DNA of 64,000 nucleotides from Parcubacteria group bacterium Gr01-1014_30 (GTDB lineage Bacteria; Patescibacteriota; Minisyncoccia; Minisyncoccales; 2-12-FULL-40-12). The notes under the pieces were generated by a model. That model made no database searches, was not told the DNA's origin, and worked only from the letters and a program-made list of their open reading frames with translations. Below, in pieces: positions 7,589 through 43,204 of this stretch; the first letter of the stretch is position 1, and every line of letters starts with the position of its first letter. The position numbers were made by a program, and so were the translations under genes. The DNA is taken from assembly GCA_007376185.1 (NCBI GenBank), contig VMFS01000001.1, forward strand, positions 10,768-74,767. Reading direction: 5' to 3'.

Positions 7589-8552
7589 CAAATACCCCGG
7601 TAGTGGAAGTTTGGCAAATCGCCAAGGGCGGCAAAATGGATTTTTGCGGAGCAAAAATCACAGCCGAACTTCTACTACCGGGTACGTTATCGGAGTTGAC
7701 GGGGGCGGAACAAAGACGATTGCCGCCCTAGCCAACTTGCAAGGCAAAATTTTAAAAATGGGTAAATCCGGCGCTTCCAGTCCGAGAAATGTTGGAATTG
7801 AAAAAACCGCCAGGAATGTTGCCAAAGCAGTCAAGAAAGTCTTACCAAAAGAGAGAAGAAAAGTCCTGTCCATTTTTGTCGGCTTGCCCGCCGTACAAGA
7901 GGAGTTTGAGTCAAAAGTTATGGAGATAAAAAAAATAATCTCGCGGCAAGTTAAGGGAAAGTTAGCCGTGGGTTCTGACCAACTGGTGGCTTTCAGGTCG
8001 GGAACCGACAGCAAAGACGGCATAGTCTTGATAGCCGGGACCGGCTGCGTGGCCCACGGCTGGAAAGGCAAGAAAGAACATAAAAGCTCTGGCTGGGGCT
8101 GGCTGGCCGATGAGGGCTCTGGTTTTTGGATAGGCCAAAGAGTTTTTCAAGCGGCTTTCAGGGACTTTGACGGCAGAGGACCAAAGACATCTTTGAAGGT
8201 TCCTATTAAAAAAATATATGCAATATATGCGCAAAATTTTGTTAAAGAAGTTTCTTCGCTTTCAATAATATGCGACCAACGCGCCCGCAAAGGCGACAAG
8301 GTTTCAAAACTCATCTTAACGGAGGCAGGCAGAGAGCTGGCTGAAAGCGTCAAAACCGTAGTAAAAAAACTGAATTTGGCAAAAAACGCATTCCCTTTAG
8401 TTTTGATTGGTAGCGTTTTAAAATCAAAAATTGTTTTGGAGCAACTAAAAAGGGGGGTTAAAAAGTACTACCCAAAGGTTCAGTTTGTTCAACCAGAAAA
8501 AGAGCCGGTAACAGGAGCTGTAAAACTAGCCATAGAGCAAATAAGGAGCTAA
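7572..8552 (+). CDS. BadF/BadG/BcrA/BcrD-type ATPase (N-acetylglucosamine-kinase-like)
   Basis: YVIGVDGGGTKT phosphate-1 motif and AGTGCVAHG. The low-complexity N-terminus suggests the true start may be further downstream. Confidence 0.7.
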   Translation: MKQNNNKYPGSGSLANRQGRQNGFLRSKNHSRTSTTGYVIGVDGGGTKTIAALANLQGKILKMGKSGASSPRNVGIEKTARNVAKAVKKVLPKERRKVLSIFVGLPAVQEEFESKVMEIKKIISRQVKGKLAVGSDQLVAFRSGTDSKDGIVLIAGTGCVAHGWKGKKEHKSSGWGWLADEGSGFWIGQRVFQAAFRDFDGRGPKTSLKVPIKKIYAIYAQNFVKEVSSLSIICDQRARKGDKVSKLILTEAGRELAESVKTVVKKLNLAKNAFPLVLIGSVLKSKIVLEQLKRGVKKYYPKVQFVQPEKEPVTGAVKLAIEQIRS

Positions 8553-9143: not shown

Positions 9144-9321
9144 AAATCAACTTTTTAATTTTTTTCGCTTCCCAGCCGGAAACCTCAACCAATTTACGAC
9201 CCTGTCGCACTTTTTTGCCAGATTTTTTTGCACGATAGTGATCCTGACCGGTTCGGCGGCGCAAAACTTTGCCTTTTCTTGTAATCTTGAAACGTTTTAG
9301 TATTGACTTTCTAGTTTTCAT
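9130..9321 (-). CDS. rpmI: 50S ribosomal protein L35
   Basis: MKTRKSILKRFKITRKGKVLRRRTGQDHY...; sits in the infC-rpmI-rplT order. Confidence 0.95.
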   Translation of the reverse strand: MKTRKSILKRFKITRKGKVLRRRTGQDHYRAKKSGKKVRQGRKLVEVSGWEAKKIKKLIYGQG

Positions 9322-9830
9322 TATTGCTTCGAAATAATTATTGTAAACCCTCTCGGCTCTCTTTTTAGATCTCTTTCAGTTTTTACCGGAACCACTTTCC
9401 CCAGCATCTCAAGAAACTGCCTTATCTTCTCTTTGCCCTGGTCTCCGAATGCCTTTTCCCGGCCTCTCAAGGGTAACTCTACTCTTACTTTGTCGCCCTT
9501 TTTTAAGAACTTTTCGGCCTGTTGGGCTCTTATTTCCAAGTCGTGCGCGGAAATGTTGAAACTCAATCTGATGCCCTTGAGTTCGCCGGTGTGCTTTGGC
9601 CGGGTAGCTTTTTCTTTCTTTTGGAGGGTGTAAAGGTACTTGCCGTAATCCATCAACTTGCACACAGGCGGTTCAACTTTCTCGGTAACCTGAATTAAAT
9701 CAAGCTTGCGCTCTATGGCAATGTTCGCCGCTTCTTCAAAAGAAACAACTCCTAATTGCTTTCCGGTCTCGTCAATAAGCCGAAGCTCTTTTGCCTTTAT
9801 TTGTCTGTTGACTAATGGTTTTTTCAGCAA
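9321..9830 (-). CDS. infC: Translation initiation factor IF-3
   Basis: 169 aa. VNRQIKAKELRLIDETGKQLGV...; non-ATG (TTG) start as is usual for infC. Confidence 0.95.
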   Translation of the reverse strand: MLKKPLVNRQIKAKELRLIDETGKQLGVVSFEEAANIAIERKLDLIQVTEKVEPPVCKLMDYGKYLYTLQKKEKATRPKHTGELKGIRLSFNISAHDLEIRAQQAEKFLKKGDKVRVELPLRGREKAFGDQGKEKIRQFLEMLGKVVPVKTERDLKREPRGFTIIISKQ

Positions 9831-9859
9831 AATTGGTTTACCCTGAACTTGTTGAAAAG

Positions 9860-9979
9860 TGGTCTATTCTTGAAATAGTTCGGACGCATCTCGCCGCCTG
9901 CGGCGGCGAGAGTTTGGCCAAAAATTCCGAACCGAAATCCTGAACTTTGACAATTTCAAGTTTTTCTTTGGCGGCAAAT
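9860..9979 (-). repeat. Cassette right-boundary element, copy A (structured)
   Basis: On the minus strand: TTGCCGCCAAAGAAAAACTTGAAATTGTC ... TTCGGAATTT ... CTCGCCGCCGCAGGCGGCGAG ... CGTCCGAACTATTTCAAGAATAGACCA. The same blocks recur in the same order at 40983-41148 (+). Confidence 0.65.
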
Positions 9980-9982
9980 TCT

Positions 9983-10843
9983 TTACAAATTTATGAATTT
10001 GAACGAGTTTATCATTCCTTCAAATGTCGCATCTTTTCCAGTAGCATATCCAGCTTCTGGTTCAGTGCTGATTATATATAGAAAATCATCCTTTGTCACG
10101 AAAACATTTCTGTGCATACCTTCTTCTCCGCATGTATCTATCTCAGAACCTTGGATGCCATCGAATTTTGGTTGTGGACGCAGACCCGATGCTACACAAC
10201 GATTTAATCCAAGAAAAGAGTTGGCGTTCAAGAACTCAAGATTTTGCGGCGAGGCGACGAAGCTTGGCGCAATGTATAATTCAACCTCACAATAAAATTC
10301 TGCTCGCTCCACTGATGCAAAACAAATATTCAAAAGAGGAGAAAATTCCGGTGGTCGGTAAAATAAGGCTTGTCCTTCTAGTGGCTCAATAGTGGGAGGA
10401 TACTTAATTTCAAATCTGTATTTGTCATTCCGATATGCTTGCCAGTTTAAGGTTTCAATTTTTGTTGTTTGTGAAATGGGGATGTTTGTTAACTTTGGCT
10501 CTGATAATTTTGATTCAGGTAGAAAACGAAGCACGAGGAATAAGGTTATCCCCGCAATTATTAGGATTAAGCTCGTAATCGAAAGTATTTTCTTGTTTTC
10601 TCTACGGAAACTGATAAGAGAAAAAATGATACCAAGCAACGGCAAAACAATAGGGAAACCAAAGTGTTGTGGTAGATAACCCAGTGGATAATCCGGCAAA
10701 TAGGCTATAAGAATTATAGGAAATAAAACAGAAGCAAGCGGATGTGTTTCCGGAATATCCATAAAAGCTATCACTGCCTGTGTAAAAACTAGAACACTTA
10801 TAATGAAAGAAATTATTGCAAACTTTGAAAATTTTGTTTCCAT
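9983..10843 (-). CDS. Membrane-anchored protein with extracytoplasmic C-terminal domain (hypothetical)
   Basis: Start reset to METKFSKF (ATG at 10841-10843); the listed 9983..11011 ORF runs into tmRNA. Several TM helices, then a W.AYRNDKYRFEIKYP domain also present in ORF 45685-46635. Confidence 0.6.
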   Translation of the reverse strand: METKFSKFAIISFIISVLVFTQAVIAFMDIPETHPLASVLFPIILIAYLPDYPLGYLPQHFGFPIVLPLLGIIFSLISFRRENKKILSITSLILIIAGITLFLVLRFLPESKLSEPKLTNIPISQTTKIETLNWQAYRNDKYRFEIKYPPTIEPLEGQALFYRPPEFSPLLNICFASVERAEFYCEVELYIAPSFVASPQNLEFLNANSFLGLNRCVASGLRPQPKFDGIQGSEIDTCGEEGMHRNVFVTKDDFLYIISTEPEAGYATGKDATFEGMINSFKFINL

Positions 10844-10926
10844 ATGTGAAAAAATTTTCTTTCCCCAAAATGCGGAATCGCCAACTGATTTTCTCGCCCC
10901 AAAAACCTTACGATTTGGCCGCCGAG
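10844..10926 (-). repeat. Cassette left-boundary / leader element, copy A
   Basis: Minus strand CTCGGCGGCCAAATCGTAAGGTTTTTGGGGCGAGAAAATCAGTTGGCGATTCCGCATTTTGGGGAAAGAAAATTTTTTCACAT|ATG. About 85% identical by eye to 39584-39669 (+). Confidence 0.65.
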
Positions 10927-10966
10927 CGAAGCGAGGCGACTGCCCCTTGCTTGCATTTTCCTGTCC

Positions 10967-11315
10967 GGTGGAGATGCCGAGAGTTGAACTCGGATCCAGA
11001 AAGTTTGCCAAAATCGTCTACAAGCTTAGTCGGTTTAGCCACCTCAAAACGCTGGATATAAAGCCGACAAAACTCCAACATTCCTAAGTCCCTTGAGTTC
11101 CCTGGTTCTGCGGGACGAAAAACCAAGACATCTCGATTTTATGACACCTGATGCCGCCTATCGAGAATCAGCGGTTCAGATGCCGCTAAGCTAAAGCTAA
11201 AGCGGGTTCTCTGTTAAATAAGTTGGCGCTTATTTTTTGTTTTGCCCGCCTGCGCAGGCAGGCGGGCAGGCCTGCTGATTTTGACAAATCATTCCTGTCT
11301 ACGCCTTCCATCCCC
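10967..11315 (-). ncRNA. ssrA: tmRNA (SsrA), tag peptide ANLFNREPALALA
   Basis: 5' GGGGATG pairs with 3' CATCTCC-A-CC, including G3:U. T-arm CCGAG-TTCAACT-CTCGG. Tag ORF GCC AAC TTA TTT AAC AGA GAA CCC GCT TTA GCT TTA GCT TAG at 11186-11227. Directly adjacent to smpB. Confidence 0.88.
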
Positions 11316-11778: not shown

Positions 11779-11816
11779 CTATTTCATTCTACCAAAAAAC
11801 CCTGTAAAATAGTAAA

Positions 11817-11838
11817 GGGACTGTCCCTCCCCTGTCCC
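11817..11838. repeat. Left hairpin flanking the Y1 transposase gene
   Basis: GGGACTGTCCC palindrome followed by a second CTGTCCC, 9 nt before the ATG. Confidence 0.6.
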
Positions 11839-11846
11839 TATAATTC

Positions 11847-12479
11847 ATGAGGCAGCCGAGAAGCTTTAGCAAAGATAGTTTTTGGCACGTTCTTAACCGC
11901 GGAGTAGCTAAAGAAAGCATCTTTCGCGAGAAAGGAGACTTTATCTTTTATCTTTATAAAATAAAAGAGCTTATTAAGAAGTACCCCGTGGGAATTCACT
12001 GTTATAATTTTATACCTAATCACGTTCACTACTTATTAAAACAAACGACTGACGTACCTCCTGGCAAATTCATTGGCAGCCTTCACACAAGCCTAGGGAT
12101 TTATATTAACAAAAAATACTCTCGTTCTGGCCACTTATTTCAAGATAGGTATAAAGCAAGGCCTCTGGGAGAAGAAGCTCTGTTGCCAGTATCTGTTTAC
12201 ATTAATCTGAATAAAGTTCTTGAACAGACTCAACACGTTCAAGAGAAACGAATTTCAAAAAACCAGTTAAATAAACTACTAGAAGAAGCAACAACAGACC
12301 CCTGGAGCAGTTATGCTGTTTATTTAGGACTAAGAGAAGACGGTATTACAGATAGTAAGTTCATTTTATCCTTACTATCCGACGATATTCAAAAAGCTCG
12401 CAAAGAGTATAAAAAACTGGCAGAGGAACTTATCACTTCTGGCTTCTTCTTGAAAACGCGCGGCATCGTTTTCGACTAG
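11847..12479 (+). mobile_element. IS200/RAYT-like Y1 (HUH) transposase gene
   Basis: 210 aa. FWHVLNRGV..., HUH motif NHVHYLLKQ, and LFQDRYKARPL containing the catalytic-type Tyr. Flanked by GGACTGTCCC-containing hairpins. Confidence 0.75.
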
Positions 12480-12487
12480 GTTTGTTA

Positions 12488-12509
12488 GGGACAGTCCCCG
12501 GACTGTCCC
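12488..12509. repeat. Right hairpin flanking the Y1 transposase gene
   Basis: GGGACAGTCC-CC-GGACTGTCCC, perfect 10-bp arms, starting 9 nt after the stop codon. Confidence 0.65.
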
Positions 12510-12723
12510 TCTTTCCTCTTAGAATTCTCTCCGGGCTGCATCGCATTCGGAATCTTCAATTCTCTTACTTTCCGCACCAAGTAGCAACAAGTGCAATGCG
12601 TATAGTGCGGCACGCCGAGAGCAGAAGTATCCGCTCTCGCTCTGGCGCGCGCTATCGCGGAGTTCGACCGCGCGGAACCTTGGCCCCGCACGCACTATCT
12701 ACTATCCGCAATGATTATATCAC

Positions 12724-12764
12724 AAAAAAAACGGGCTCCGCGACAATTGTCTTGTCGGGAGCCC
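12724..12764 (-). terminator. Rho-independent terminator of the 12844-13452 gene
   Basis: Minus strand GGGCTCCCGACAAGACAATTGTCGCGGAGCCC long stem followed by T8. Confidence 0.65.
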
Positions 12765-12843
12765 AAAGAATAAATCTGCCTGTTGGTCGGAAGTACCCAA
12801 GGACCCAAAGATACAAAACCTAGGGACCAAGGGCCAAAGTGCG

Positions 12844-13452
12844 CTACTTGCCGGAGACAGCGATACGACCGCGGCGATCCACGCCGCGGCCCAACCAGCC
12901 CCAGTGCAGGCACCAGCGCCGGCCGCCCTGGTCCAGACAAGCCACGCACCGGCCGCTGTCCGAGTTCACCACGACGATACCCGGGAAGTCAATATAGACC
13001 TTCCCGAGAAGAGCCACGAAGGCCGGATGCTCGTCCTGGTGTTCCACAAGCCAGTTGGCCTGCTGGTAACCATGCAGGATGTCCTGCTTTGGCTGGAGGC
13101 GGCGCTCGTACTCCGCGCCGTTGATATAATGCTCGCCCTCGCGGATGACGGTGCCGAGGTGAAATGTAACCGCCTCGGTCGGAGAGGTGTCGCGCTCAAT
13201 GCCTTCCTCCTCGCGGATCCAGGGGTACTTCTCCCTGAGATCTTCGAATGTCGGGCACGGCAGGGCCGGGATCTGGAGCGTGAGCTCGTCCGTCAGAATG
13301 AGCGTCTCCGCCACTGCGATAATCTCTTGCACCTTGGCGATGGCGAAATCAGCGCTCACGAACGCTCCCTCCTTGCGCCGGAGGATACGCTCTGCCTTAC
13401 GGCACTTGCGCACGAACTCGTCTACCTTGTCGGCCGTATTCTGGTACAGCAT
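12844..13452 (-). CDS. Hypothetical 202-aa protein in the GC-rich island
   Basis: Protein-like composition (MLYQNTADKVDEFVRKCRKAERIL...YINGAEYERRLQPKQDILHGYQQANWLVEHQDEHPAF...). SD AAAGGAGAGGA before the ATG and a terminator downstream. The opposite-strand ORF 12904-13503 is Ala/Leu/Arg-rich shadow. No family recognised. Confidence 0.6.
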   Translation of the reverse strand: MLYQNTADKVDEFVRKCRKAERILRRKEGAFVSADFAIAKVQEIIAVAETLILTDELTLQIPALPCPTFEDLREKYPWIREEEGIERDTSPTEAVTFHLGTVIREGEHYINGAEYERRLQPKQDILHGYQQANWLVEHQDEHPAFVALLGKVYIDFPGIVVVNSDSGRCVACLDQGGRRWCLHWGWLGRGVDRRGRIAVSGK

Positions 13453-13804
13453 TCTATCCTCTCCTTTGCCTGCCGCTTATCCTGCAGGATTGCAGGAACT
13501 TAGGCAGGACTGGTTGCTCGTCGGAAAATATCTAAATATCCTCCAGCGAGCAACCAACTTTACAGGCAGTAAAAATATATTGTAAAAGTGCAATTTAAGC
13601 TGTTTCCAGCTTGATATTTATATTATATACCAATATAGAATAATTGTCAATAGTTTGTAATGGTTCAATAACTTAGAAGCACTGCGGGGTAAAATTAAAG
13701 CTCTGCGCCAAATCTCGCAGTTAAAAGTAAAATTACCAGAAGAAGAGATGCTTTTAATTTAGGCAAGAATACGATAAAGTGAATCCAAGCAACACCGCAA
13801 TAGT

Positions 13805-32633: not shown

Positions 32634-32917
32634 TGGAAAAAGCCAAGGCGCACATTTTTGTTTCTGGAAGTGTACAAGGCGTTCTTTTTCGCGACAGCGC
32701 CAGGAGAAAAGCCCGGAAGCTTAAGGTAAAGGGCTGGGTTAGGAACTTGCCAGACGGCAGAGTGGAGATAATTGCTGAAGGAGAAAAAGACAGAGTTGAA
32801 CAAATGATTAATTGGGCAAGAACAGGCACAATTTTAGCAAGGGTTGACAATGTTGACTTTGAGTTTGAGGAATATAAAGGAGAGTTTGACGACTTTGAAA
32901 TAAGGTATGCCCCGTAA
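32633..32917 (+). CDS. acyP: Acylphosphatase
   Basis: VSGSVQGVLFRDSARRKARKLKVKGWVRNLPDGRVEI. Confidence 0.9.
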   Translation: MEKAKAHIFVSGSVQGVLFRDSARRKARKLKVKGWVRNLPDGRVEIIAEGEKDRVEQMINWARTGTILARVDNVDFEFEEYKGEFDDFEIRYAP

Positions 32918-32989
32918 TACAACTTCCAGTGCGTTTTTCCAAAGAGAAACACAAAACCGCCGGAGGCGACTGGAAGATGATATACGGGG
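32910..32989 (+). repeat. Hairpin element, copy 1 (CCCCGTAATACAACTTCCAG ... GCGACTGGAAGATGATATACGGGG)
   Basis: The termini are identical to the reverse complement of 34891-34960; the interior differs. Confidence 0.7.
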
Positions 32990-32990
32990 T

Positions 32991-33308
32991 ATGGGTAAAA
33001 TTTTCTGGACTACGCACTCAAAACAAAAAATGCGTTATTACCAGCTGTCGGAAAAAAGAGTTCTGAGAGTGTTGAGAAAACCCAACAGAAAAGAAGAAGG
33101 CATTGTTGATGGAACAATCGCCAATATGCAGATAGCTGGTACCAAGAAACGGCCAACTGAGGTTTGGACTATGTACGTAATTTTGAAAAGACCAAAAGGC
33201 GTTAAAATCATCAGTGCCTGGCGCTACCCCGGCAGGACTCCTCAGGGCCAAAGGCCTATTATTCCAGACGACGTTCTAAAAGATATACTAAAAGAGCACT
33301 TAAAATAA
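32991..33308 (+). CDS. DUF4258-like small protein (hypothetical)
   Basis: Start reset to MGKIFWTTHSKQKMRYYQLSEKRVLRVLRKP; the upstream 28 codons of the listed ORF are the hairpin element. Confidence 0.45.
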   Translation: MGKIFWTTHSKQKMRYYQLSEKRVLRVLRKPNRKEEGIVDGTIANMQIAGTKKRPTEVWTMYVILKRPKGVKIISAWRYPGRTPQGQRPIIPDDVLKDILKEHLK

Positions 33309-34825: not shown

Positions 34826-34890
34826 GTAATTTGAGTGTTAAATAAAAAGCGACCTTTTTTGACTTCTAAGCCGCTTTCTACTTAACTTTG

Positions 34891-34960
34891 CCCCGTATAT
34901 CATCTTCCAGTCGCCTGCGGCGATTTGCGCGCGGAGCGCGCTGGAAGTTGTATTACGGGG
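34891..34960 (-). repeat. Hairpin element, copy 2 (inverted relative to copy 1)
   Basis: CCCCGTATATCATCTTCCAGTCGC ... GCTGGAAGTTGTATTACGGGG. Confidence 0.7.
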
Positions 34961-35308
34961 CTTTGGCTTTTTAAGCTTACTTAAGATATCCAACGACTTA
35001 TACTGTCTAGAGCCATTATACACTACTCAAAAGAAATGTCAACTGCTCTGTGTATCTTTACAGTACGGCTCGAAACCATTTTCTGAAAAATTGCTAACGC
35101 AATTTTGAAACTTCTCCAAATCCGCTCGGGTGCGGCGGAAGGAGGGGGCAAAAAGAAAAAGGGATAATAATTTGGAAAGAAATTCGCGAAGTTCTTTTTT
35201 CGTTTTGGCTTGATTATTATTGACATTTCTTGTAATGTGATTTTGGTATTAAGCCCGATTGTCGGGCTTAAATCGTACATTCCCAACTAAAAACAGGAGG
35301 ACAGCGAC

Positions 35309-37127: not shown

Positions 37128-37583
37128 TTATAGCGGGCAATCAACCACTGCCCAGCCGCCGTCTGCCAAACCAGTCCACTCCATTACTCCGATTACATCA
37201 AAGAACAAGCTGACAATTATCCAAGCGGCGTAAATCAAAACCAATCCGATTATTGTCCAAGTGAAGGTTTGCTTGGCTCTTGAAAGCAAAGCTGGACCCC
37301 CCTCTCCTCCCTTTGCCACCACGCCAAAGTAGGCAAACACATACATAAACCCGCCGATGGCTATCATTAAAATGGCTAAGGGTGGAACAATCCTGGTTAA
37401 AAGGTACTGAACTACGTTTTGGAAAAGAACAAAGATGTGACAAAGCTGACACGCTGGCTCATCTTGCCCTCCGCAAGGCACGAGCCCAGCCGCAAAAGAA
37501 ACCAAAGGCATGAGCAAGATTCCCAGAATAATCGTTATAAACAAAATTGAAAATTGAAAATTGAAAATTGAAAATTTCCCCAT
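37128..37583 (-). CDS. VirB2/TrbC-like 'pilin' membrane protein
   Basis: 151 aa. Signal-like N-terminus, Cys pairs (CGG..ACQLC), and two long hydrophobic helices around a GGEGGP loop. Same architecture as the N-termini of ORFs 57367 and 62762. Confidence 0.6.
   Translation of the reverse strand: MGKFSIFNFQFSILFITIILGILLMPLVSFAAGLVPCGGQDEPACQLCHIFVLFQNVVQYLLTRIVPPLAILMIAIGGFMYVFAYFGVVAKGGEGGPALLSRAKQTFTWTIIGLVLIYAAWIIVSLFFDVIGVMEWTGLADGGWAVVDCPL
37543..37577. repeat. Heptanucleotide tandem repeat (AAAATTG x4 plus AAAATTT) inside codons 3-14 of the pilin-like gene
   Basis: Read directly. The coding strand is ATTTTCA x4, giving FSIFNFQFSI. Confidence 0.85.
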
Positions 37584-37815: not shown

Positions 37816-37830
37816 TGTTTGCGTTTTAAC

Positions 37831-39279
37831 ATGAAAATCCCTGCCCAAGTAAAAGAAGTTATTAACAAATTACAGAAAAGCGACTTTGAGGCCTACGTTG
37901 TCGGCGGGTGCGTGAGGGATTTGTTGCGCGGCGTGGAACCTGGCGATTGGGATGTGGCGACTTCGGCAAAACCAGAAGAAATTCAAAAAGTATTTCCGAA
38001 AAGTTTTTATAGCAACCAATTCTTCACGGTAACAGTTCAAACTGGCGGCACCAAAGCCCAACTTAAAGAAGTGGAAGTTACGACTTTCAGGAAAGAGGCA
38101 AAATATACCGACAAAAGACACCCAGACAAAGTTGAGTTCGCCAACTCGCTTAAAGAGGACTTGGCAAGGAGAGATTTCACTATAAACGCAATAGCCGCTG
38201 ACAGTAAACTTGAAATAACCGATCCTTTCTCGGGGCAAAAAGATCTTAAAAGTAAAGTTATTCGGTCTGTTGGAAATCCGCAAGATCGCTTTAATGAAGA
38301 CGCTTTGAGAATGATGAGAGCTGTCCGGTTGGCTACGGCTTTGGGGTTCGCTATCGAGCCAAAAACGGCTGACGCAATTAAAAAAAACTCTCCCTGGCTG
38401 CAGGCGATTTCCAAGGAAAGAATCAGAGACGAATTCGTAAAAATCGTTATGACAGAAAAGGCGGCAGAGGGCGTGGAACTGTTAAGAGAGCTTGGCCTTT
38501 TAAGATATATTGTTCCAGAATTGGAAGAGGGCTACGGAGTGGGGCAAAACAAACACCACATTTACGACTGCTATCACCACAACCTTTATGCCCTAAAGTA
38601 TGCCGCTCAACAGAACTTCAGCAGAGACGTTCGTCTGGCCTCCCTACTGCACGACATAGCCAAGCCGAGGGTGAAAAAAGGAGAAGGGCCCGATTCTACT
38701 TTTTACAATCACGAGGTCGTTGGCGCCAAAATGACGGCTCAAATTTTAAGCCGCTTGAGGTTTGCCAAAAAAGACATTGAAAAAATAGCCAAGCTTGTCA
38801 GATACCATCTTTTTTACTACAATGTCGGCGAAGTAGGGACATCCTCGGTAAGACGGCTGGTAAGGCAGGTGAGCCCTGAAAATATGGAAGAGCTTTTGCA
38901 GGTGAGACAGGCAGACAGAATCGGCTCTGGAGTTCCCAAGGCAGAACCCTACAAATTGAGGCACTTAAAGTACTTGATTGAAAAAGTGAGCAAAGATCCC
39001 ATCTCTCCGAAAATGCTCAAAGTTTCTGGCAACGACGTAATGAAGGTTTTGAAAATAGGGCAAGGGCCAAGAGTGGGGCAAGTTTTGGACGTTCTGCTCG
39101 GCTATGTGCTGGAAGACCCGAAGAAAAACAAGCGGGATTTTTTGGAAAAAGAAATTGAAAAACTGGGTAAGCTATCCGACGAAAAATTAAAAAAATTATC
39201 CGAAATCTCCAGAAAAGAAAGAGAAAAACTGGAAACAAAAAGGGACAAAATGACAAAGAAGAAATATTGGGTTACTTAA
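37831..39279 (+). CDS. cca: CCA-adding enzyme (tRNA nucleotidyltransferase with HD domain)
   Basis: AYVVGGCVRDLLRG..DWDVAT, RDFTINA, HD region LLHDIAKP. ATG at 37831 is preferred over the TTG at 37819. Confidence 0.9.
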   Translation: MKIPAQVKEVINKLQKSDFEAYVVGGCVRDLLRGVEPGDWDVATSAKPEEIQKVFPKSFYSNQFFTVTVQTGGTKAQLKEVEVTTFRKEAKYTDKRHPDKVEFANSLKEDLARRDFTINAIAADSKLEITDPFSGQKDLKSKVIRSVGNPQDRFNEDALRMMRAVRLATALGFAIEPKTADAIKKNSPWLQAISKERIRDEFVKIVMTEKAAEGVELLRELGLLRYIVPELEEGYGVGQNKHHIYDCYHHNLYALKYAAQQNFSRDVRLASLLHDIAKPRVKKGEGPDSTFYNHEVVGAKMTAQILSRLRFAKKDIEKIAKLVRYHLFYYNVGEVGTSSVRRLVRQVSPENMEELLQVRQADRIGSGVPKAEPYKLRHLKYLIEKVSKDPISPKMLKVSGNDVMKVLKIGQGPRVGQVLDVLLGYVLEDPKKNKRDFLEKEIEKLGKLSDEKLKKLSEISRKEREKLETKRDKMTKKKYWVT

Positions 39280-39371: not shown

Positions 39372-39442
39372 CGGGGCATAGTATACCGGCAGTACACACC
39401 CTTCGGGAGGGTGAAGATTGAGTTCAATTCTCAATGCCCCGA
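39372..39442 (+). tRNA. tRNA-Pro (anticodon CGG), no encoded CCA
   Basis: CGGGGCA-TA-GTAT..GTAC-A-CACCC-TT[CGG]GA-GGGTG-AAGA-TTGAG-TTCAATT-CTCAA-TGCCCCG-A. Confidence 0.85.
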
Positions 39443-39443
39443 C

Positions 39444-39517
39444 GGGCCATTAGTATAGTGGCAATACACCGCATTCGCATTGCGGAGACGTGAGTTCGAT
39501 TCTCACATGGTCCACCA
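39444..39517 (+). tRNA. tRNA-Ala (anticodon CGC), CCA encoded, G3:U70
   Basis: GGGCCAT-TA-GTAT..ATAC-A-CCGCA-TT[CGC]AT-TGCGG-AGAC-GTGAG-TTCGATT-CTCAC-ATGGTCC-A-CCA. Confidence 0.9.
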
Positions 39518-39583
39518 TTTCAGATTTGGGTCGGAAGTTGCCTCGCGGAGTTTATCCCGCACCGAGCTTGCTCTGGTGCGGGG

Positions 39584-39669
39584 CTCGGCGACCAAATCAT
39601 AAGGTTTTCTGGGCGAAAAAACCAGTTGGCGATTCTGTTTTTGGGAAAAGAAAATTTTTAATCATATAT
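39584..39669 (+). repeat. Cassette left-boundary / leader element, copy B
   Basis: CTCGGCGACCAAATCATAAGGTTTTCTGGGCGAAAAAACCAGTTGGCGATTCTGTTTTTGGGAAAAGAAAATTTTTAATCATATAT|ATG. Matches 10844-10926 (-). Confidence 0.65.
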
Positions 39670-40185
39670 ATGCAAGAAAATTTTTACGATATTTTACCGT
39701 ATATAGTTCTAGTTTTGGTTATTATATCTTTCATAGAGAATCGTAATCGTATTATAGAAAAAGAAAAGGCATATACTTTTTTCAAACAAACAAAAAAGTT
39801 TTTTGTACTTTTCGCAGTCATTCAAAGTTCAATACTCTTATATCTACACTTTTTTGTATATCCGACACTCAACAATGCTTTTAGTGAATCTAATTCTACT
39901 TCTTTTCTTCTAAAAATCAGTCCTTACTCAACTTTTGTCATTATTCCCATTGTAATTGCTGTTACTCTCTTTGCTTATTTTTCAAAATCCATTGCGCAGG
40001 AGTTTGAAGAAAACCTAAAAAAGCATAAAGATGATGTAAAGATTAAGATTAGTGATCTAACCACTGGAAAACTTAAATTATTAATTAATTTAGTAATGTA
40101 CTTACCTCTTTTTGTCATAGTACTTTTTGTGCTTATACCTGGTTTCCAACTAATTTCAGTTGCATCAAATTGGCGGTTAAAGTAA
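39670..40185 (+). CDS. Small polytopic membrane protein (hypothetical)
   Basis: Start reset to MQENFYDILPYIVLVLVIISF; the listed ORF start at 39490 lies inside tRNA-Ala. AT-rich. Confidence 0.55.
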   Translation: MQENFYDILPYIVLVLVIISFIENRNRIIEKEKAYTFFKQTKKFFVLFAVIQSSILLYLHFFVYPTLNNAFSESNSTSFLLKISPYSTFVIIPIVIAVTLFAYFSKSIAQEFEENLKKHKDDVKIKISDLTTGKLKLLINLVMYLPLFVIVLFVLIPGFQLISVASNWRLK

Positions 40186-40189
40186 TTAT

Positions 40190-40597
40190 ATGAAAAAATT
40201 GATACTTAAATATCCTTTGGCTACTTGGATGAGTATAGGATACTTAATTTTTATCGCGATCTTATTTATCGGCATTTTTCTAAACCGTTTTGCTGTATTT
40301 GGTGAATTTGGAGACGCACTTAGTATGACATTTTTCCTTTGGCCATATCCATTAGTCCTAGCTTTGCAAACTTGGATAAATCCTAGTGGTATCAATTTTT
40401 TGTTATTTGCATATCCTCTTGGGCTTGGCTTGGTCATTTTTTTCGGATTTTACTTACAACGACTGCTTAAAATTTCTAATGAGTCACCGTATTCTCATGT
40501 GTGGTCAATTTTGTTATTTCCCATTCCTTTAATACTATTGCAGGTTTTTGTTGCTGGGTTTGTATATTTTGTTTTGGGTTTACCGATTGGGGAGTAA
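40190..40597 (+). CDS. Small polytopic membrane protein (hypothetical)
   Basis: 135 aa with about 4 hydrophobic helices. No family recognised. Confidence 0.5.
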   Translation: MKKLILKYPLATWMSIGYLIFIAILFIGIFLNRFAVFGEFGDALSMTFFLWPYPLVLALQTWINPSGINFLLFAYPLGLGLVIFFGFYLQRLLKISNESPYSHVWSILLFPIPLILLQVFVAGFVYFVLGLPIGE

Positions 40598-40630: not shown

Positions 40631-40975
40631 ATGGAAGACACACCAAGTAATAACCAAAATCAACAATATTCTTCAAAGCCGGGAAAGATTCTTGCATATC
40701 TTTTTCTTAGTGCTTCAGTGGTAGTTTCTGGTTTGTTCTTTTTTAGTAAATGGGCAATTAACGCAGAATCATTTGGAAAATATGATCTGGGCTATGGGAT
40801 ATTTTTTTCATTTGTTTTTGCTTCTCTCATTTATGTCTCCTTGGGACTTGCCTTTCTTAGTTTTCTGGCAGCGCTGATAAATTTTTTCCGCCATCGCCCA
40901 GTTCGAATATATCTTTTGAGCATGGTTCTTGCATTGTTACCGATGGGCTATCTATTTTTGATTGATATAATATAG
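40631..40975 (+). CDS. Small membrane protein (hypothetical)
   Basis: 114 aa with 3 hydrophobic helices after a polar N-terminus. Confidence 0.5.
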   Translation: MEDTPSNNQNQQYSSKPGKILAYLFLSASVVVSGLFFFSKWAINAESFGKYDLGYGIFFSFVFASLIYVSLGLAFLSFLAALINFFRHRPVRIYLLSMVLALLPMGYLFLIDII

Positions 40976-40982
40976 GGATAAG

Positions 40983-41148
40983 TATTTTGCCGCCAAAGAA
41001 AAACTTGAAATTGTCCTCAGTAGTAGAAGCTACGCTTCACTACGGGTCAGGCATTAGCGCGGCGGAGCCGCAACTTCGGAATTTCGCGGGAGGCTTTCCT
41101 CGCCGCCTGCGGCGGCGAAAACCGTCCGAACTATTTCAAGAATAGACC
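40983..41148 (+). repeat. Cassette right-boundary element, copy B (with an extra internal segment of about 45 nt)
   Basis: TTGCCGCCAAAGAAAAACTTGAAATTGTC ... TTCGGAATTT ... CTCGCCGCCTGCGGCGGCGAA ... CGTCCGAACTATTTCAAGAATAGACCA. Confidence 0.65.
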
Positions 41149-41149
41149 A

Positions 41150-41995
41150 TAAGAGTTATCCACATTGAACCCACAGACCTTCAGAAGGCCGCATAAAATC
41201 TATATTTTCAAGGCCCTCTCAATCCCCGAGACGAGCCTGATTTTCGGGAACTAGACCCCTGGGGATAAGTTGAACCGGTGACGCTGGTCAGGTATCGGCT
41301 GATTGTGAAGTACATTGAGGCGATGCGCGACTGGGAGTTGTGCCCTTGTTGAATTCTGACGCCGTGCTATTCTCAAAGTAGTGAATGAAGGACTTCTGGG
41401 CGCCCCACAGATGATCACTTGTATCGTCATGTCAGCGAACGGTGGCCCTAGGCCAAGCTTGCCAACATCCGTTTGTTTGGTGCTACGAGGTGCGCGATCT
41501 CCTTCGAAGCGTCCCTGATACAACATATGTCCAAACGAGCTCTAAAGATCTCACTAATCGTCCTTATCGTTGCGGCCGCAGCCACAGTGATCTTGATGAC
41601 CAGGACCGAGAAGCCTCTCGAGTCGCCGCCGGATTCCAAAGATCTCATCCGAGATTCCTCTGTCACCGACTCAAACCGCACCGTTTCAAATCGTCAGGCT
41701 GACCTGTCAGTCCGCAATGAGGACGCTATATCGCGCTCACGTGGTCTCCTGAGGAAAGCGCAATTGAATATGCTGTTTCCGCGCTCTCTCGATAGACGGT
41801 CCCTGGGAGGAGCTCTTTCGGAGGCCTGGCGCTCGACCCAATAGTGTCGATTTCACGCCGGAAGCCACCGAGCGAGAGCTGTGTTATAAGGTCGAGGGTC
41901 TAGATGCGAGCGGCAAGATGATTCGCGGTTACGAACCAGTCTGTGTGCCGCCATTCGTGGGAAGCCACAGCCATGAGGAGTAAAGTGAGTTCTGA
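41150..41995. other. GC-rich fragment 3 (compositionally foreign; boundaries approximate)
   Basis: GC visibly higher than the AT-rich cassette on its left and the aminotransferase gene on its right. Confidence 0.5.
41527..41983 (+). pseudogene. Frameshifted gene for a membrane-anchored protein (hypothetical)
   Basis: The first frame reads MSKRALKISLIVLIVAAAATVILMTRTEKPLESP.... A protein-like continuation ...DGPWEELFRRPGARPNSVDFTPEATERELCYKVEGLDASGKMIRGYEPVCVPPFVGSHSHEE* lies in the +1 frame with no start codon of its own. Confidence 0.35.
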
Positions 41996-42055: not shown

Positions 42056-43204
42056 GTGAGAGATTTACCGGCAGAGGATTTGGAAATCATAAAATCTGAC
42101 GGCAATTTTTTGTTTGATTCCAAAAGCAAAAAATACATAGACTTTTTGATGGGCTGGTGCGTTGGAAATATCGGCTGGAACAACAAGGAAGTAAAAAAGA
42201 GGCTCAGCCAGTACAAGGGGCCTGATTATGTAAATCCTGCCTTTTTGTATAAATCGTGGGCGGAATTAGCGGAGCTCCTGGCAAAAATTACGCCCGGAAA
42301 ATTGCAAAAGAGTTTTCGCGCCACCGGCGGCACCGAAGCTGTGGAAATTGCGCTCCAAGCGGCAATGTCGCACACAAAGAGACATAAATTTATATCTATA
42401 GAAGGCAGTTATCACGGCCATTCAATTGGCGCCATGAGCGTTGGTTCTTCTGATTTTCGCAGTTGGTACAGCAACCTTCTGCCCGATTGCTACAAATTAG
42501 AACCGCCGCTTGACGAGAAAGCGGCAGATAAGCTTGAGGAACTTCTTAGAAAAGGCGGCATCGCCGCCCTGATTATGGAGCCGGTAATTTGCAACTTAGG
42601 CGTAGAAATTCCAACAGCGGAGTTTATGAATCGCGCCAAAGACCTATGTAAGCAATATGGCGCACTTCTCATTATGGACGAGGTGGCCACCGGTTTTGGC
42701 AGAACAGGAAAACTTTTTGCGTCAGAACACTATGGAATTGAACCGGATGTTATGTGTTTGGCAAAAGGTATCACGGGTGGATATGGCGGGTTGGGCGCTA
42801 CCATTGCAATAGAGGAGGTTGCAAAATCTATGGAGTACGAATTTAGTTTTTATTCAACATATGGCTGGCACCCCTTAAGCGTAGAGGCGGCTATTGCAAA
42901 TATCAAATATATTGTGAAGCACAAAAAGCAGTTGGAGAAAAACACAAATGAGATGAGTAAATATTTTGTTGAGCGCCTTTCACGAATGAAATTCAAATAT
43001 CCCGCAAAAATTCGCGCAAAGGGTTTGGCAATCGGTGTGGAATTTGAGCGAGCCGGATATGCCAATGAGATCATGAAAAGAGCTCAAGAGAAAGGTGTTT
43101 TGTTCTCGCCTTTAAGCGACAAAATATTTACTCTATTCCCTGCTTTGAATATTGACCATGAAACCGCTCGGAAAGGACTAAATATTATTGAAGAATGTCT
43201 GTAA
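42056..43204 (+). CDS. Class-III (PLP-dependent) aminotransferase
   Basis: GGTEAVEIALQ, IMDEVATGFGRTGKLFA, and LAKGITGG containing the PLP lysine. Confidence 0.85.
   Translation: MRDLPAEDLEIIKSDGNFLFDSKSKKYIDFLMGWCVGNIGWNNKEVKKRLSQYKGPDYVNPAFLYKSWAELAELLAKITPGKLQKSFRATGGTEAVEIALQAAMSHTKRHKFISIEGSYHGHSIGAMSVGSSDFRSWYSNLLPDCYKLEPPLDEKAADKLEELLRKGGIAALIMEPVICNLGVEIPTAEFMNRAKDLCKQYGALLIMDEVATGFGRTGKLFASEHYGIEPDVMCLAKGITGGYGGLGATIAIEEVAKSMEYEFSFYSTYGWHPLSVEAAIANIKYIVKHKKQLEKNTNEMSKYFVERLSRMKFKYPAKIRAKGLAIGVEFERAGYANEIMKRAQEKGVLFSPLSDKIFTLFPALNIDHETARKGLNIIEECL

Follow-up and report, generated by a model that had tools for sequence, protein, structure and literature searches.

Large serine recombinases (LSRs) of the Ccr type (CcrA/B/C) insert the staphylococcal cassette chromosome (SCC), a unit of 20–60 kb with a recombinase pair and variable cargo, at the 3′ end of a conserved housekeeping gene, rlmH, and both non-autonomous cassettes lacking ccr and composite arrays exist. 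Islands of the Islander/TIGER type and prophages insert at the 3′ ends of tRNA and transfer-messenger RNA (tmRNA) genes, where they form attL/attR hybrids and occupy their sites sporadically; the islands have an integrase gene near one end, mostly of the tyrosine type, and leave a repeat of the displaced tRNA fragment of tens of nucleotides. The serine integrases of phages and of integrative and conjugative elements (ICEs), e.g., A118, phiC31, Bxb1, TP901-1, and TnpX/TndX, combine Resolvase, Recombinase, and zinc-ribbon domains and usually target protein-coding genes. Here we describe two cassettes in a 64-kb stretch of DNA (hereafter, the window) from the metagenome-assembled genome (MAG) Parcubacteria group bacterium Gr01-1014_30, one inserted at the tmRNA gene (locus 1) and the other at tRNA-Ala(cgc) (locus 2). 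Comparison with other genomes indicates that they are very probably integrated, recombinase-less copies of a family of LSR mini-elements that target the 3′ ends of tRNA and tmRNA genes and are widespread in Parcubacteria/Patescibacteria.

The nearest analogue of the window copies may be an SCC cassette lacking ccr. As in SCC, an LSR would insert a cassette with variable cargo at the 3′ end of a conserved housekeeping gene, and the best NCBIfam matches of the LSR encoded by the related elements are CcrB (E = 5e-27) and XisF (E = 5.5e-26). All of these matches are far below the equivalog cutoffs, and at 94.7 bits against a cutoff of 900 bits the enzyme is not a Ccr. The elements also differ from SCC in their target (tRNA and tmRNA instead of rlmH), in their size (1.1–2.7 kb, with one recombinase), and in their borders, which are arms of about 100 nt that overlap the recombinase coding sequence. 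The 3′-end insertion, hybrid junctions, and sporadic occupancy of Islander/TIGER-type islands recur here, and in full elements the LSR gene abuts the tRNA, as the integrase gene lies near one end of the islands, but the window copies have no such gene; in contrast to the islands, the recombinase is of the serine type, the core is only CCA(C), and several tRNAs as well as tmRNA serve as hosts. The domain architecture is shared with the phage and ICE serine integrases, and the nearest solved structure is that of the A118 integrase (4kis/6dnw; E about 2e-6), but the best identity to annotated phage and plasmid recombinases is 23–30%, and no phage or conjugation genes accompany the LSR.

Like cis-mobilizable elements (CIMEs) and derivatives that resemble miniature inverted-repeat transposable elements (MITEs), the window copies keep both att-bearing ends and miss the recombinase; very short “solo” forms, in which module M1 is fused to module M7b (modules are defined below), occur at two other loci (L012 and L014; L-numbers denote the loci and contigs compared). 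Unlike classical MITEs, the window copies carry genes. Conserved flanks around a slot for unrelated single genes are also a feature of integron cassettes, but here there is no IntI tyrosine recombinase and no attC (R''/L''/L'/R') or attI-linked array, the slot boundaries are ragged, and inspection of the sequences revealed no attC boxes GTTRRRY/RYYYAAC in the right places. Literature searches returned no prior description of this element.

Two Cassettes with Common Borders

Modules were defined by reading loci that carry a 23-mer of the right border and were then mapped by BLAST: M1-M2-M3 (left arm B), M4, M5, M6, and M7a-M7b (right arm). In these terms, the left elements of the window are M1b-M2-M3b-M4 and the right elements M6-M7. 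On the minus strand, the order at locus 1 is smpB, tmRNA, left element, one gene of 286 aa, right element, and infC-rpmI-rplT. The tmRNA gene (10966/7–11315, minus strand; ARAGORN; Rfam RF00023, 111.6 bits; tag ANLFNREPALALA) ends in ...CATCTCCAC, with the 4-nt core CCAC at 10971–10968. The whole inserted element, 1109 nt at 9859–10967, starts at the base that follows CCAC and closes with the terminal ...AATAGACCAC. Its left arm B (10872–10967, identified by module BLAST and tblastn) matches M1b at 96%, M2, an imperfect palindrome GCCTCGCTTCGCTCGGC, at 100%, and M3b at 90%. M4 (10844–10871; ATTTTGGGGAAAGAAAATTTTTTCACAT), a conserved leader, reaches the ATG of the cargo ORF (open reading frame; 9983–10843), the stop codon of which is overlapped by M6 (9949–9984; AAGAATTTGCCGCCAAAGAAAAACTTGAAATTGTC). 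The right arm is a short variant of M7 (9859–9948) that consists of a TTCGGA/TCCGAA hairpin, a CTCGCCGCC-GCA-GGCGGCGAG hairpin, and the invariant end CGTCCGAACTATTTCAAGAATAGACCAC.

Locus 2 reads on the plus strand as tRNA-Pro, tRNA-Ala, left element, three small membrane-protein ORFs, and right element. The host tRNA-Ala(cgc) (39444–39517) follows tRNA-Pro(cgg) (39372–39443; both ARAGORN and Rfam). Module BLAST identified left arm B (39518–39637) with a degenerate M1, an M2 split by a nested hairpin insertion of about 36 nt (GGAGTTTATCC...), and M3b at 98%; M4 (39639–39669) is identical to the consensus at 29 of 29 positions and reaches the first cargo ATG. The ORFs of 171, 135, and 114 aa occupy 39670–40185, 40190–40597, and 40631–40975, respectively. 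The right element (40983–41149) comprises M6 (40986–41015; 100%), a hairpin insertion of 41 nt, M7a (41057–41098; 93%), and M7b (41099–41149; 51/51), and ends in ...AATAGACCA. Both host RNAs are complete according to ARAGORN and Rfam, and the element begins right after CCAC in tmRNA and right after CCA in tRNA-Ala. There is no spacer between tRNA-Pro and tRNA-Ala (39443/39444), and CCA is not encoded in tRNA-Pro.

The initial annotation of the window, made from the sequence alone, had described this gene order with common borders around unrelated cargo at the two RNA genes, and its coordinates proved accurate within a few bases. The similarity of the left elements, estimated there by eye at about 85% over about 80 nt, was computed as 81% over 77 nt (10851–10927 vs. 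39583–39659). The right elements, for which four collinear blocks had been reported, share an exact 30-mer (9949–9978/40986–41015), an exact 27-mer (9860–9886/41123–41149), a GC hairpin CTCGCCGCC..GGCGGCGA, and TTCGGAATTT; their middles differ, and their lengths are 119 nt at locus 1 and 164 nt at locus 2. Chance does not explain the common borders, because the 30-mer and the 27-mer each occur twice in the window against 0.00 expected in shuffles. A G3:U pair is indeed present in both hosts on direct reading of the sequence, but the proposed link between the sites through alanine identity or this pair is not supported, because the hosts found elsewhere include, besides Ala, tRNA-Val, Leu, Gln, and Lys.

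Two copies in one genome, in the same order and polarity, could have arisen by an ancient intragenomic duplication of one flanked locus without mobility. This is refuted by the comparison: in arm B, the tmRNA copy and locus 2 agree at 62%, and the tmRNA copy agrees with L005 and L031 at 89–90%, the two copies carry different M7 variants, and the modules are found in dozens of genomes. Since each copy resembles those of other phyla-level lineages more than it resembles the other, the two are independent.

Small palindromic insertions of 36–130 nt interrupt otherwise conserved modules, both in the window (39555–39590 and 41016–41056) and elsewhere (L033, about 1440–1480; L031, 4734–4796; L046, 4340–4480). 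They are situated in M2 (window, L033), in M6 (L031, L046), and in the gap between M6 and M7a (window), and, as tiny hairpins, may be a class of insertion of their own in these genomes.

Linkage of the Borders to a Large Serine Recombinase

The right-border 23-mer (TCCGAACTATTTCAAGAATAGAC) is found exactly in 24 stretches of GTDB species-representative genomes, often twice per contig. The label is Patescibacteria for 23 of the 24, with carriers including Vogel-, Yanofsky-, Portnoy-, Sung-, Niyogi-, and Liptonbacteria, and Gammaproteobacteria for the remaining one (L010). Among these stretches and related loci, at least nine (L015, L013, L023, L005, L003, L029, L031/L032, and L033) have the modules around an LSR gene of about 500 codons, and the encoded proteins share 73–90% of their residues. 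The 500-aa ORF between the modules of L015, from Sungbacteria, matches PF00239 Resolvase (E = 1.5e-20, residues 4–150, where YARKST fits the serine motif YxRxS), PF07508 Recombinase (E = 1.5e-15), and, at the borderline, PF13408 Zn_ribbon_recom (E = 2.1e-5; 25.2 bits vs. a cutoff of 25.3), and on the basis of these three Pfam domains it is classified as an LSR; Recombinase and zinc-ribbon domains are precomputed for most of its homologues. The LSR gene is always convergent to the host tRNA (Ala-tgc, Ala-cgc, Val-cac, or Leu-caa), and an LSR fragment in L018 adjoins tRNA-Gln. The suggestion of a site-specific island or cassette system in the initial annotation is thus borne out by the same modules surrounding an LSR gene beside tRNAs in other genomes, which also supply the integrase that it had not seen in the window.

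The origin of the borders, i.e., an antisense C-terminus and a sense N-terminal fragment of the LSR, is not visible without such a comparison. M5a-M3-M2-M1, read as the reverse complement, makes up the last approximately 45 codons of the LSR gene, whose ORF terminates within the tRNA antisense. Therefore, the left elements of the window are antisense to the C-terminal coding region, their left arm being the reverse complement of the last approximately 40 codons. In tblastn searches, residues 458–498 of the L015 LSR match the window at 10870–10992 with 56% identity (E = 1e-7), and the C-terminus also matches 39637–39485 (E = 1.4e-5). M6, in turn, is a sense fragment covering LSR codons ~29–40 (EFAAKEKLEIV); it lies inside the LSR ORF in L015, L013, L005, L023, L031, and L033, and the window copy is identical at 36/36 nt to positions 93–128 of the L033 LSR gene. 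The first 33–36 nt of the right border thus correspond to these codons, and the remainder, which is conserved but non-coding, forms an arm with the end ...GACCA(C). The leader M4 precedes both the cargo in the window and the LSR gene in full elements.

On the tRNA strand, the full element reads tRNA / M1 M2 M3 / M5a-LSR(antisense)-M4rc / M3rc M2rc M1rc / M7brc M7arc M5rc / M4-cargo-M6-M7a-M7b / flank (rc, reverse complement). The window type, tRNA / M1 M2 M3 M4-cargo-M6-M7 / flank, equals the full element minus the recombinase arc, and it recurs in L009 (Portnoybacteria) at tRNA-Val(gac), with the same short M7 variant as in the tmRNA copy and unrelated cargo. The window copies have lost, or never had, the recombinase; because it is present in neither of them, we regard both as derivatives and not as autonomous members of the family. 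An SSV-type split integrase (named for the Sulfolobus spindle-shaped virus) was considered and rejected for the window-type element, as its N- and C-terminal fragments are on opposite strands and so cannot rejoin as one ORF; a circularly permuted split version could describe the “cargo arc” of full elements.

At a cutoff of E ≤ 0.001, more than 7000 proteins match the LSR, with identities of 70% or higher throughout the best 120. Many of these relatives are on contigs of about 2 kb, as expected of a repeat that breaks assemblies. The LSR proteins are 85–90% identical across candidate phyla, and the module DNA of the window and L033 is 77–100% identical, whereas the CCA-adding enzymes of the same pair are only about 57% identical; conservation so far above the host background would reflect horizontal spread or strong constraint. 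One LSR protein (P0095) occurs identically on 19 contigs, all in one same context, and hence gives no direct sign of recent movement.

Nothing points to the element being a phage: the 23-mer was absent from the viral contigs searched and only two relatives of the LSR, both cut off, were found there (IMG/VR contigs L027, 4–354, and L028, 60–410; 74% identical). Their LSR match ends at residue 117, in the middle of PTFWFE.TPQG, with unrelated DNA after it; a further element may have interrupted the gene, or the boundary of the contig may fall within it.

Insertion at the 3′ Ends of tRNA and tmRNA Genes

The three relatives nearest in translation initiation factor IF-3 (L041, L043, and L044; 75–77% identity) share the synteny argS-smpB-tmRNA-infC, and in each of them the tmRNA end ...CATCTCCAC is followed, after 9–20 nt, by ATTTTGCTG, the start of infC. 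Compared with these empty sites, the window has 1109 extra nt after CCAC, and the insert itself ends in ...GACCAC. Because these relatives run directly from tmRNA to infC, locus 1 is, relative to them, a clean insertion with a 4-nt common core, and infC (9321–9830, minus strand, followed by rpmI and rplT; assigned from ORFs, the Pfam listing, and synteny in relatives) is the original downstream neighbour of tmRNA. The apparent start codon of infC is ATT (ATTTTGCTG..., 9828–9836), with the same sequence in L041 and L044; ATT is an unusual initiation codon that is characteristic of IF-3.

Both junctions of the tmRNA locus, attL and attR, are also found on the independent Logan contigs L001 and L002 (run SRR8863434). 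Assembled with k = 31, L001 ends (at about 10925) in the middle of the M2 palindrome and L002 starts (at about 9888) just short of the invariant right end. At these break points the window itself lacks any 31-nt repeat, and thus the sample probably contains further copies or variants of the modules.

Occupancy varies between genomes. The MAG GCA_964372865.1, the source of one of the three empty tmRNA sites, also has an unoccupied tRNA-Ala(cgc), but after tRNA-Lys(ctt) it carries a cassette that is built in the same way and has diverged (L046 for tRNA-Ala and tRNA-Lys). In related loci, the element lies directly at the 3′ end of an intact tRNA at eight other tRNAs. The comparisons that the initial annotation had proposed, i.e., whether the elements consistently lie 3′ of tRNA or tmRNA genes, whether they are present in relatives, and whether their cargo varies, all came out in favour of its cassette proposal. 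Of about 21 attR flanks, seven start with CCAAA, which fits the CCA end of the old tRNA and its trailer. The target repeat at the far end is CCAC only at locus 1 and CCA only at locus 2; it is too short to be diagnostic and is compatible with crossover by a serine recombinase. A displaced 3′ fragment of tmRNA was rejected as attR, the similarity to the tmRNA end being only faint, and a metagenome scan with the tmRNA 3′ end gave seven matches, all in unrelated organisms without the modules.

Integration would follow the general scheme of integrative elements (PMC7192596). The autonomous form, which encodes the LSR, would insert into tRNA or tmRNA genes at their extreme 3′ ends by recombination between attP and attB. 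The putative attP consists of the joined element ends, M7b ...AATAGAC[CA](C) / M1, and the putative attB of the acceptor-stem end of the host RNA gene, ...C[CA](C) / trailer; the products would be attL (tRNA / M1-M2-M3) and attR (M7b / old trailer). We take left arm B of locus 1 as the P′ arm of attL and the short M7 as the P arm of attR. The predicted empty attB is ...CTCCAC + TTTTCAACAAG for tmRNA and ...CCACCA + TAAGAG for tRNA-Ala, and the predicted circular attP is ...AATAGACCA + CCGGACAGG or CATTTTAG. The LSR is presumably the enzyme responsible, with crossover placed within CCA(C). The window copies keep both arms, M4, and the M6-M7 tail, and any mobilization of them would need an LSR acting in trans. 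This model fits all four junction types seen.

Several points weigh against it. Full elements hold an internal inverted M7b/M1 junction and inverted repeats of about 100 nt, which go beyond a simple model, and the nine LSR loci are all in the same orientation, with none of the flipping that such repeats might suggest. In the 64-kb window, tblastn found no LSR gene and thus no sign that these two copies can still move, and neither excised circles nor attP reads were seen. The relatives with an empty tmRNA site, at 75–77% identity in IF-3, are related at the genus or family level and are not strains of the same species; the original attB of locus 2 is weakly supported, since L045 breaks 36 nt after the tRNA. 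Finally, with a junction core of only 3–4 nt (CCA/CCAC), the att model relies on comparison and not on long direct repeats.

Some of the evidence could also fit dead fossils, i.e., old LSR elements in which the recombinase arc was deleted, the cargo was domesticated, and the borders were kept for expression, with no present mobility. This explanation agrees with a mobile family on the origin of the cassettes and differs in their present state. The missing LSR is in its favour, as are small hairpin insertions in the modules, such as decaying DNA might have. Further, locus 2 and the distant L033 are alike in host tRNA, in synteny (tRNA-Arg, cca, tRNA-Pro ... tRNA-Ala), and in a related GGAGTTTATCC... 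insertion inside M2, which in L033 lies beside an LSR gene at the syntenic tRNA-Ala(cgc); this likeness suggests vertical inheritance from long ago. However, the terminal modules are 96–100% identical to those of LSR-bearing elements, against only 57–78% for housekeeping proteins, and neutral fossils as old as that should have decayed; moreover, none of the closest relatives found has the tmRNA copy. We consider fossils possible but rather unlikely, and favour recombinase-less copies of a mobile family. The sequences show the modules in common with LSR-bearing elements, the LSR-derived borders, the clean insertion at tmRNA relative to the closest relatives found, and the variation of both hosts and cargo.

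A Possible Second Site inside the Recombinase Gene

The two inverted B arms of full elements, about 97 nt each, are 94–100% identical within an element vs. 76–95% between genomes (L015, 6184–6280 vs. 7687–7784; also L005, L013, L003, L031, and L023), and the two M7 copies of one full element are identical to each other. These long inverted repeats undergo concerted evolution. In LSR genes that are intact, M6 and a following AAAACTGCCAAAGAACCTG block are invariant, synonymous sites included, and flank a hairpin of 17–21 nt at codons ~41–46, with 27 and 20 invariant nt on its two sides (L015, 6405–6471; L013, L023, L005, L032, L033, L030, L050, and L027). The pairs of the hairpin stem compensate each other (GCTTCC/GGAAGC, GCCTCT/AGAGGC, GCCTCG/CGAGGC, and GGTCCGAC/GTCGAGACC), and these changes alter the LSR protein (ASFEEA, ASFQEA, ASLCEA, and GPTFVET). 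The hairpin has the look of a signal at the nucleic-acid level within the coding sequence, and together with the internal junction, the concerted arms, and the invariance of M6 it suggests a second cis-acting site inside the recombinase gene.

A more speculative extension, in which we place little confidence, is that the family is a self-contained cassette platform: the second site would let the LSR swap or capture cargo, in a manner like recombinase-mediated cassette exchange, at tRNA and tmRNA ends across Parcubacteria. This idea is based on the framing of cargo by M4 and M6, the invariance of M6 and AAAACTGCCAAAGAACCTG, the covarying hairpin, the inverted attP-like junction, and the concerted arms.

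Cargo Genes

The cargo proteins of the two window loci are unrelated to each other. The 286-aa protein of locus 1 has N-terminal transmembrane segments, and its C-terminal domain weakly resembles PsbP (Pfam PsbP_2, E = 2.4e-5, short of the gathering score; singleton cluster TSC75857.1). No significant Pfam or NCBIfam family was found for the three ORFs of locus 2. In the 11 cassettes compared, the proteins encoded between M4 and M6 are mostly unrelated, and the kinds of cargo across genomes include transmembrane, PsbP-like, DUF218, PRAI, LOG, and unknown proteins. The boundaries of the slot are ragged by about 10 nt, which argues for sloppy replacement and against precise excision of cassettes at M4 or M6.

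Alternative Functions of the Borders

M4 always reaches a start codon, that of the cargo and that of the LSR gene alike, and single-sequence folds of the right elements are mildly better than those of shuffled sequences (z = -2.1 and -2.7), with stable M7 hairpins; a covarying hairpin also follows M6 inside the LSR gene. These features would suit a portable expression module, spread by ordinary recombination, with a promoter and leader in M3-M4, a terminator or mRNA-stabilizing structure in M6-M7, and incidental tRNA adjacency, a variant of which (a promoter/terminator module) the initial annotation had offered. However, consensus scans found no sigma-70-like promoter or intrinsic terminator inside the elements, the hairpin being followed by an A-run and not by a T-run. 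RNAalifold on 16 aligned M7 copies yielded three hairpins with a covariation term of -0.09 and a double change at one of 19 pairs. Nor does an expression module explain the CCA(C) junctions, the contrast with empty sites, or the constant linkage to the LSR. We consider it improbable.

Still less probable is that the right element is the gene of a structured non-coding RNA, or that the unit is a repeat of the repetitive extragenic palindromic (REP)/MITE type moved by an IS200-like Y1 transposase. The right element does have nested inverted repeats and an ...ACCA end, several modules contain small palindromic insertions, and a PF01797 Y1_Tnp gene (11847–12479) adjoins smpB. A structured RNA was nevertheless rejected: searches of Rfam at gathering scores and at permissive E-values (both window loci, L015, and L021) found nothing beyond tmRNA and tRNAs, and there is essentially no covariation over the 16 copies. 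As for a REP/REPIN-RAYT system, there are only two copies in 64 kb and none beside the Y1_Tnp gene, and elsewhere the modules accompany the LSR and not Y1 transposases. What is conserved in the borders is their primary sequence, as one would expect of recombination arms bound by protein. A pseudo-tRNA end, with CTATTTCAAGAATAG-ACCA of M7b as T-arm and acceptor, was also rejected, the TTC of the loop being 5 nt out of register from the junction; by inspection, the register of the TTCAAG loop relative to the end is unlike that of a tRNA T-arm.

Neighboring Genomic Regions

The segment of about 2.0 kb between smpB and argS (11779–13804) has a GC content of 0.48–0.49 vs. about 0.42 in its surroundings and holds, in addition to the Y1 transposase gene, a 202-aa ORF (12844–13452) without a Pfam match. 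The gap between argS and smpB is 42 nt in L041, and in L043 it contains a small ORF and a weak match to a ParE toxin, possibly a toxin-antitoxin pair. This gap is a second insertion hot spot beside the tmRNA locus.

Upstream of locus 2, a 151-aa gene matching TrbC/VirB2-type pilins (37128–37583) begins at the last base of tRNA-Arg(tcg), and the gene of the CCA-adding enzyme (37819–39279) sits between tRNA-Arg(tcg) and tRNA-Pro/tRNA-Ala. The arrangement of tRNA-Arg, pilin-like gene, cca, tRNA-Pro, and tRNA-Ala is kept in L033, L045, and L046. The tRNA-Ala cassette is followed by about 850 nt (41150–41990) with a GC content of 0.53 vs. 0.33–0.39 in the cassette, in which we found no convincing ORF and no Pfam or Rfam match; an aminotransferase gene comes next, at 42056. 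This stretch may have been left over from other foreign DNA, or it may be an assembly chimera. Elsewhere in the window, inverted-repeat pairs (45 nt, 87%; 25 nt, 96%) at 32909–32998 and 34882–34961 bracket 1.9 kb with ORFs of 133 and 414 aa.

Implications for Mobile DNA in Parcubacteria

Large serine recombinases are sought after as genome-engineering tools, and a large, tightly conserved LSR clade with readily inferred att sites may have value as such, which is directly testable. The pairing of a serine recombinase with tRNA and tmRNA targets is unusual, as these are usually the territory of tyrosine integrases. In Parcubacteria, which belong to the candidate phyla radiation (CPR) and have tiny genomes, mobile DNA is poorly understood. 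The element family is apparently very common among them and accounts for frequent assembly breaks beside tRNA genes. The single genes that its elements of 1–3 kb carry are highly variable, and many encode envelope proteins, which suggests a route for the fast turnover of surface and accessory functions in these symbiotic bacteria.

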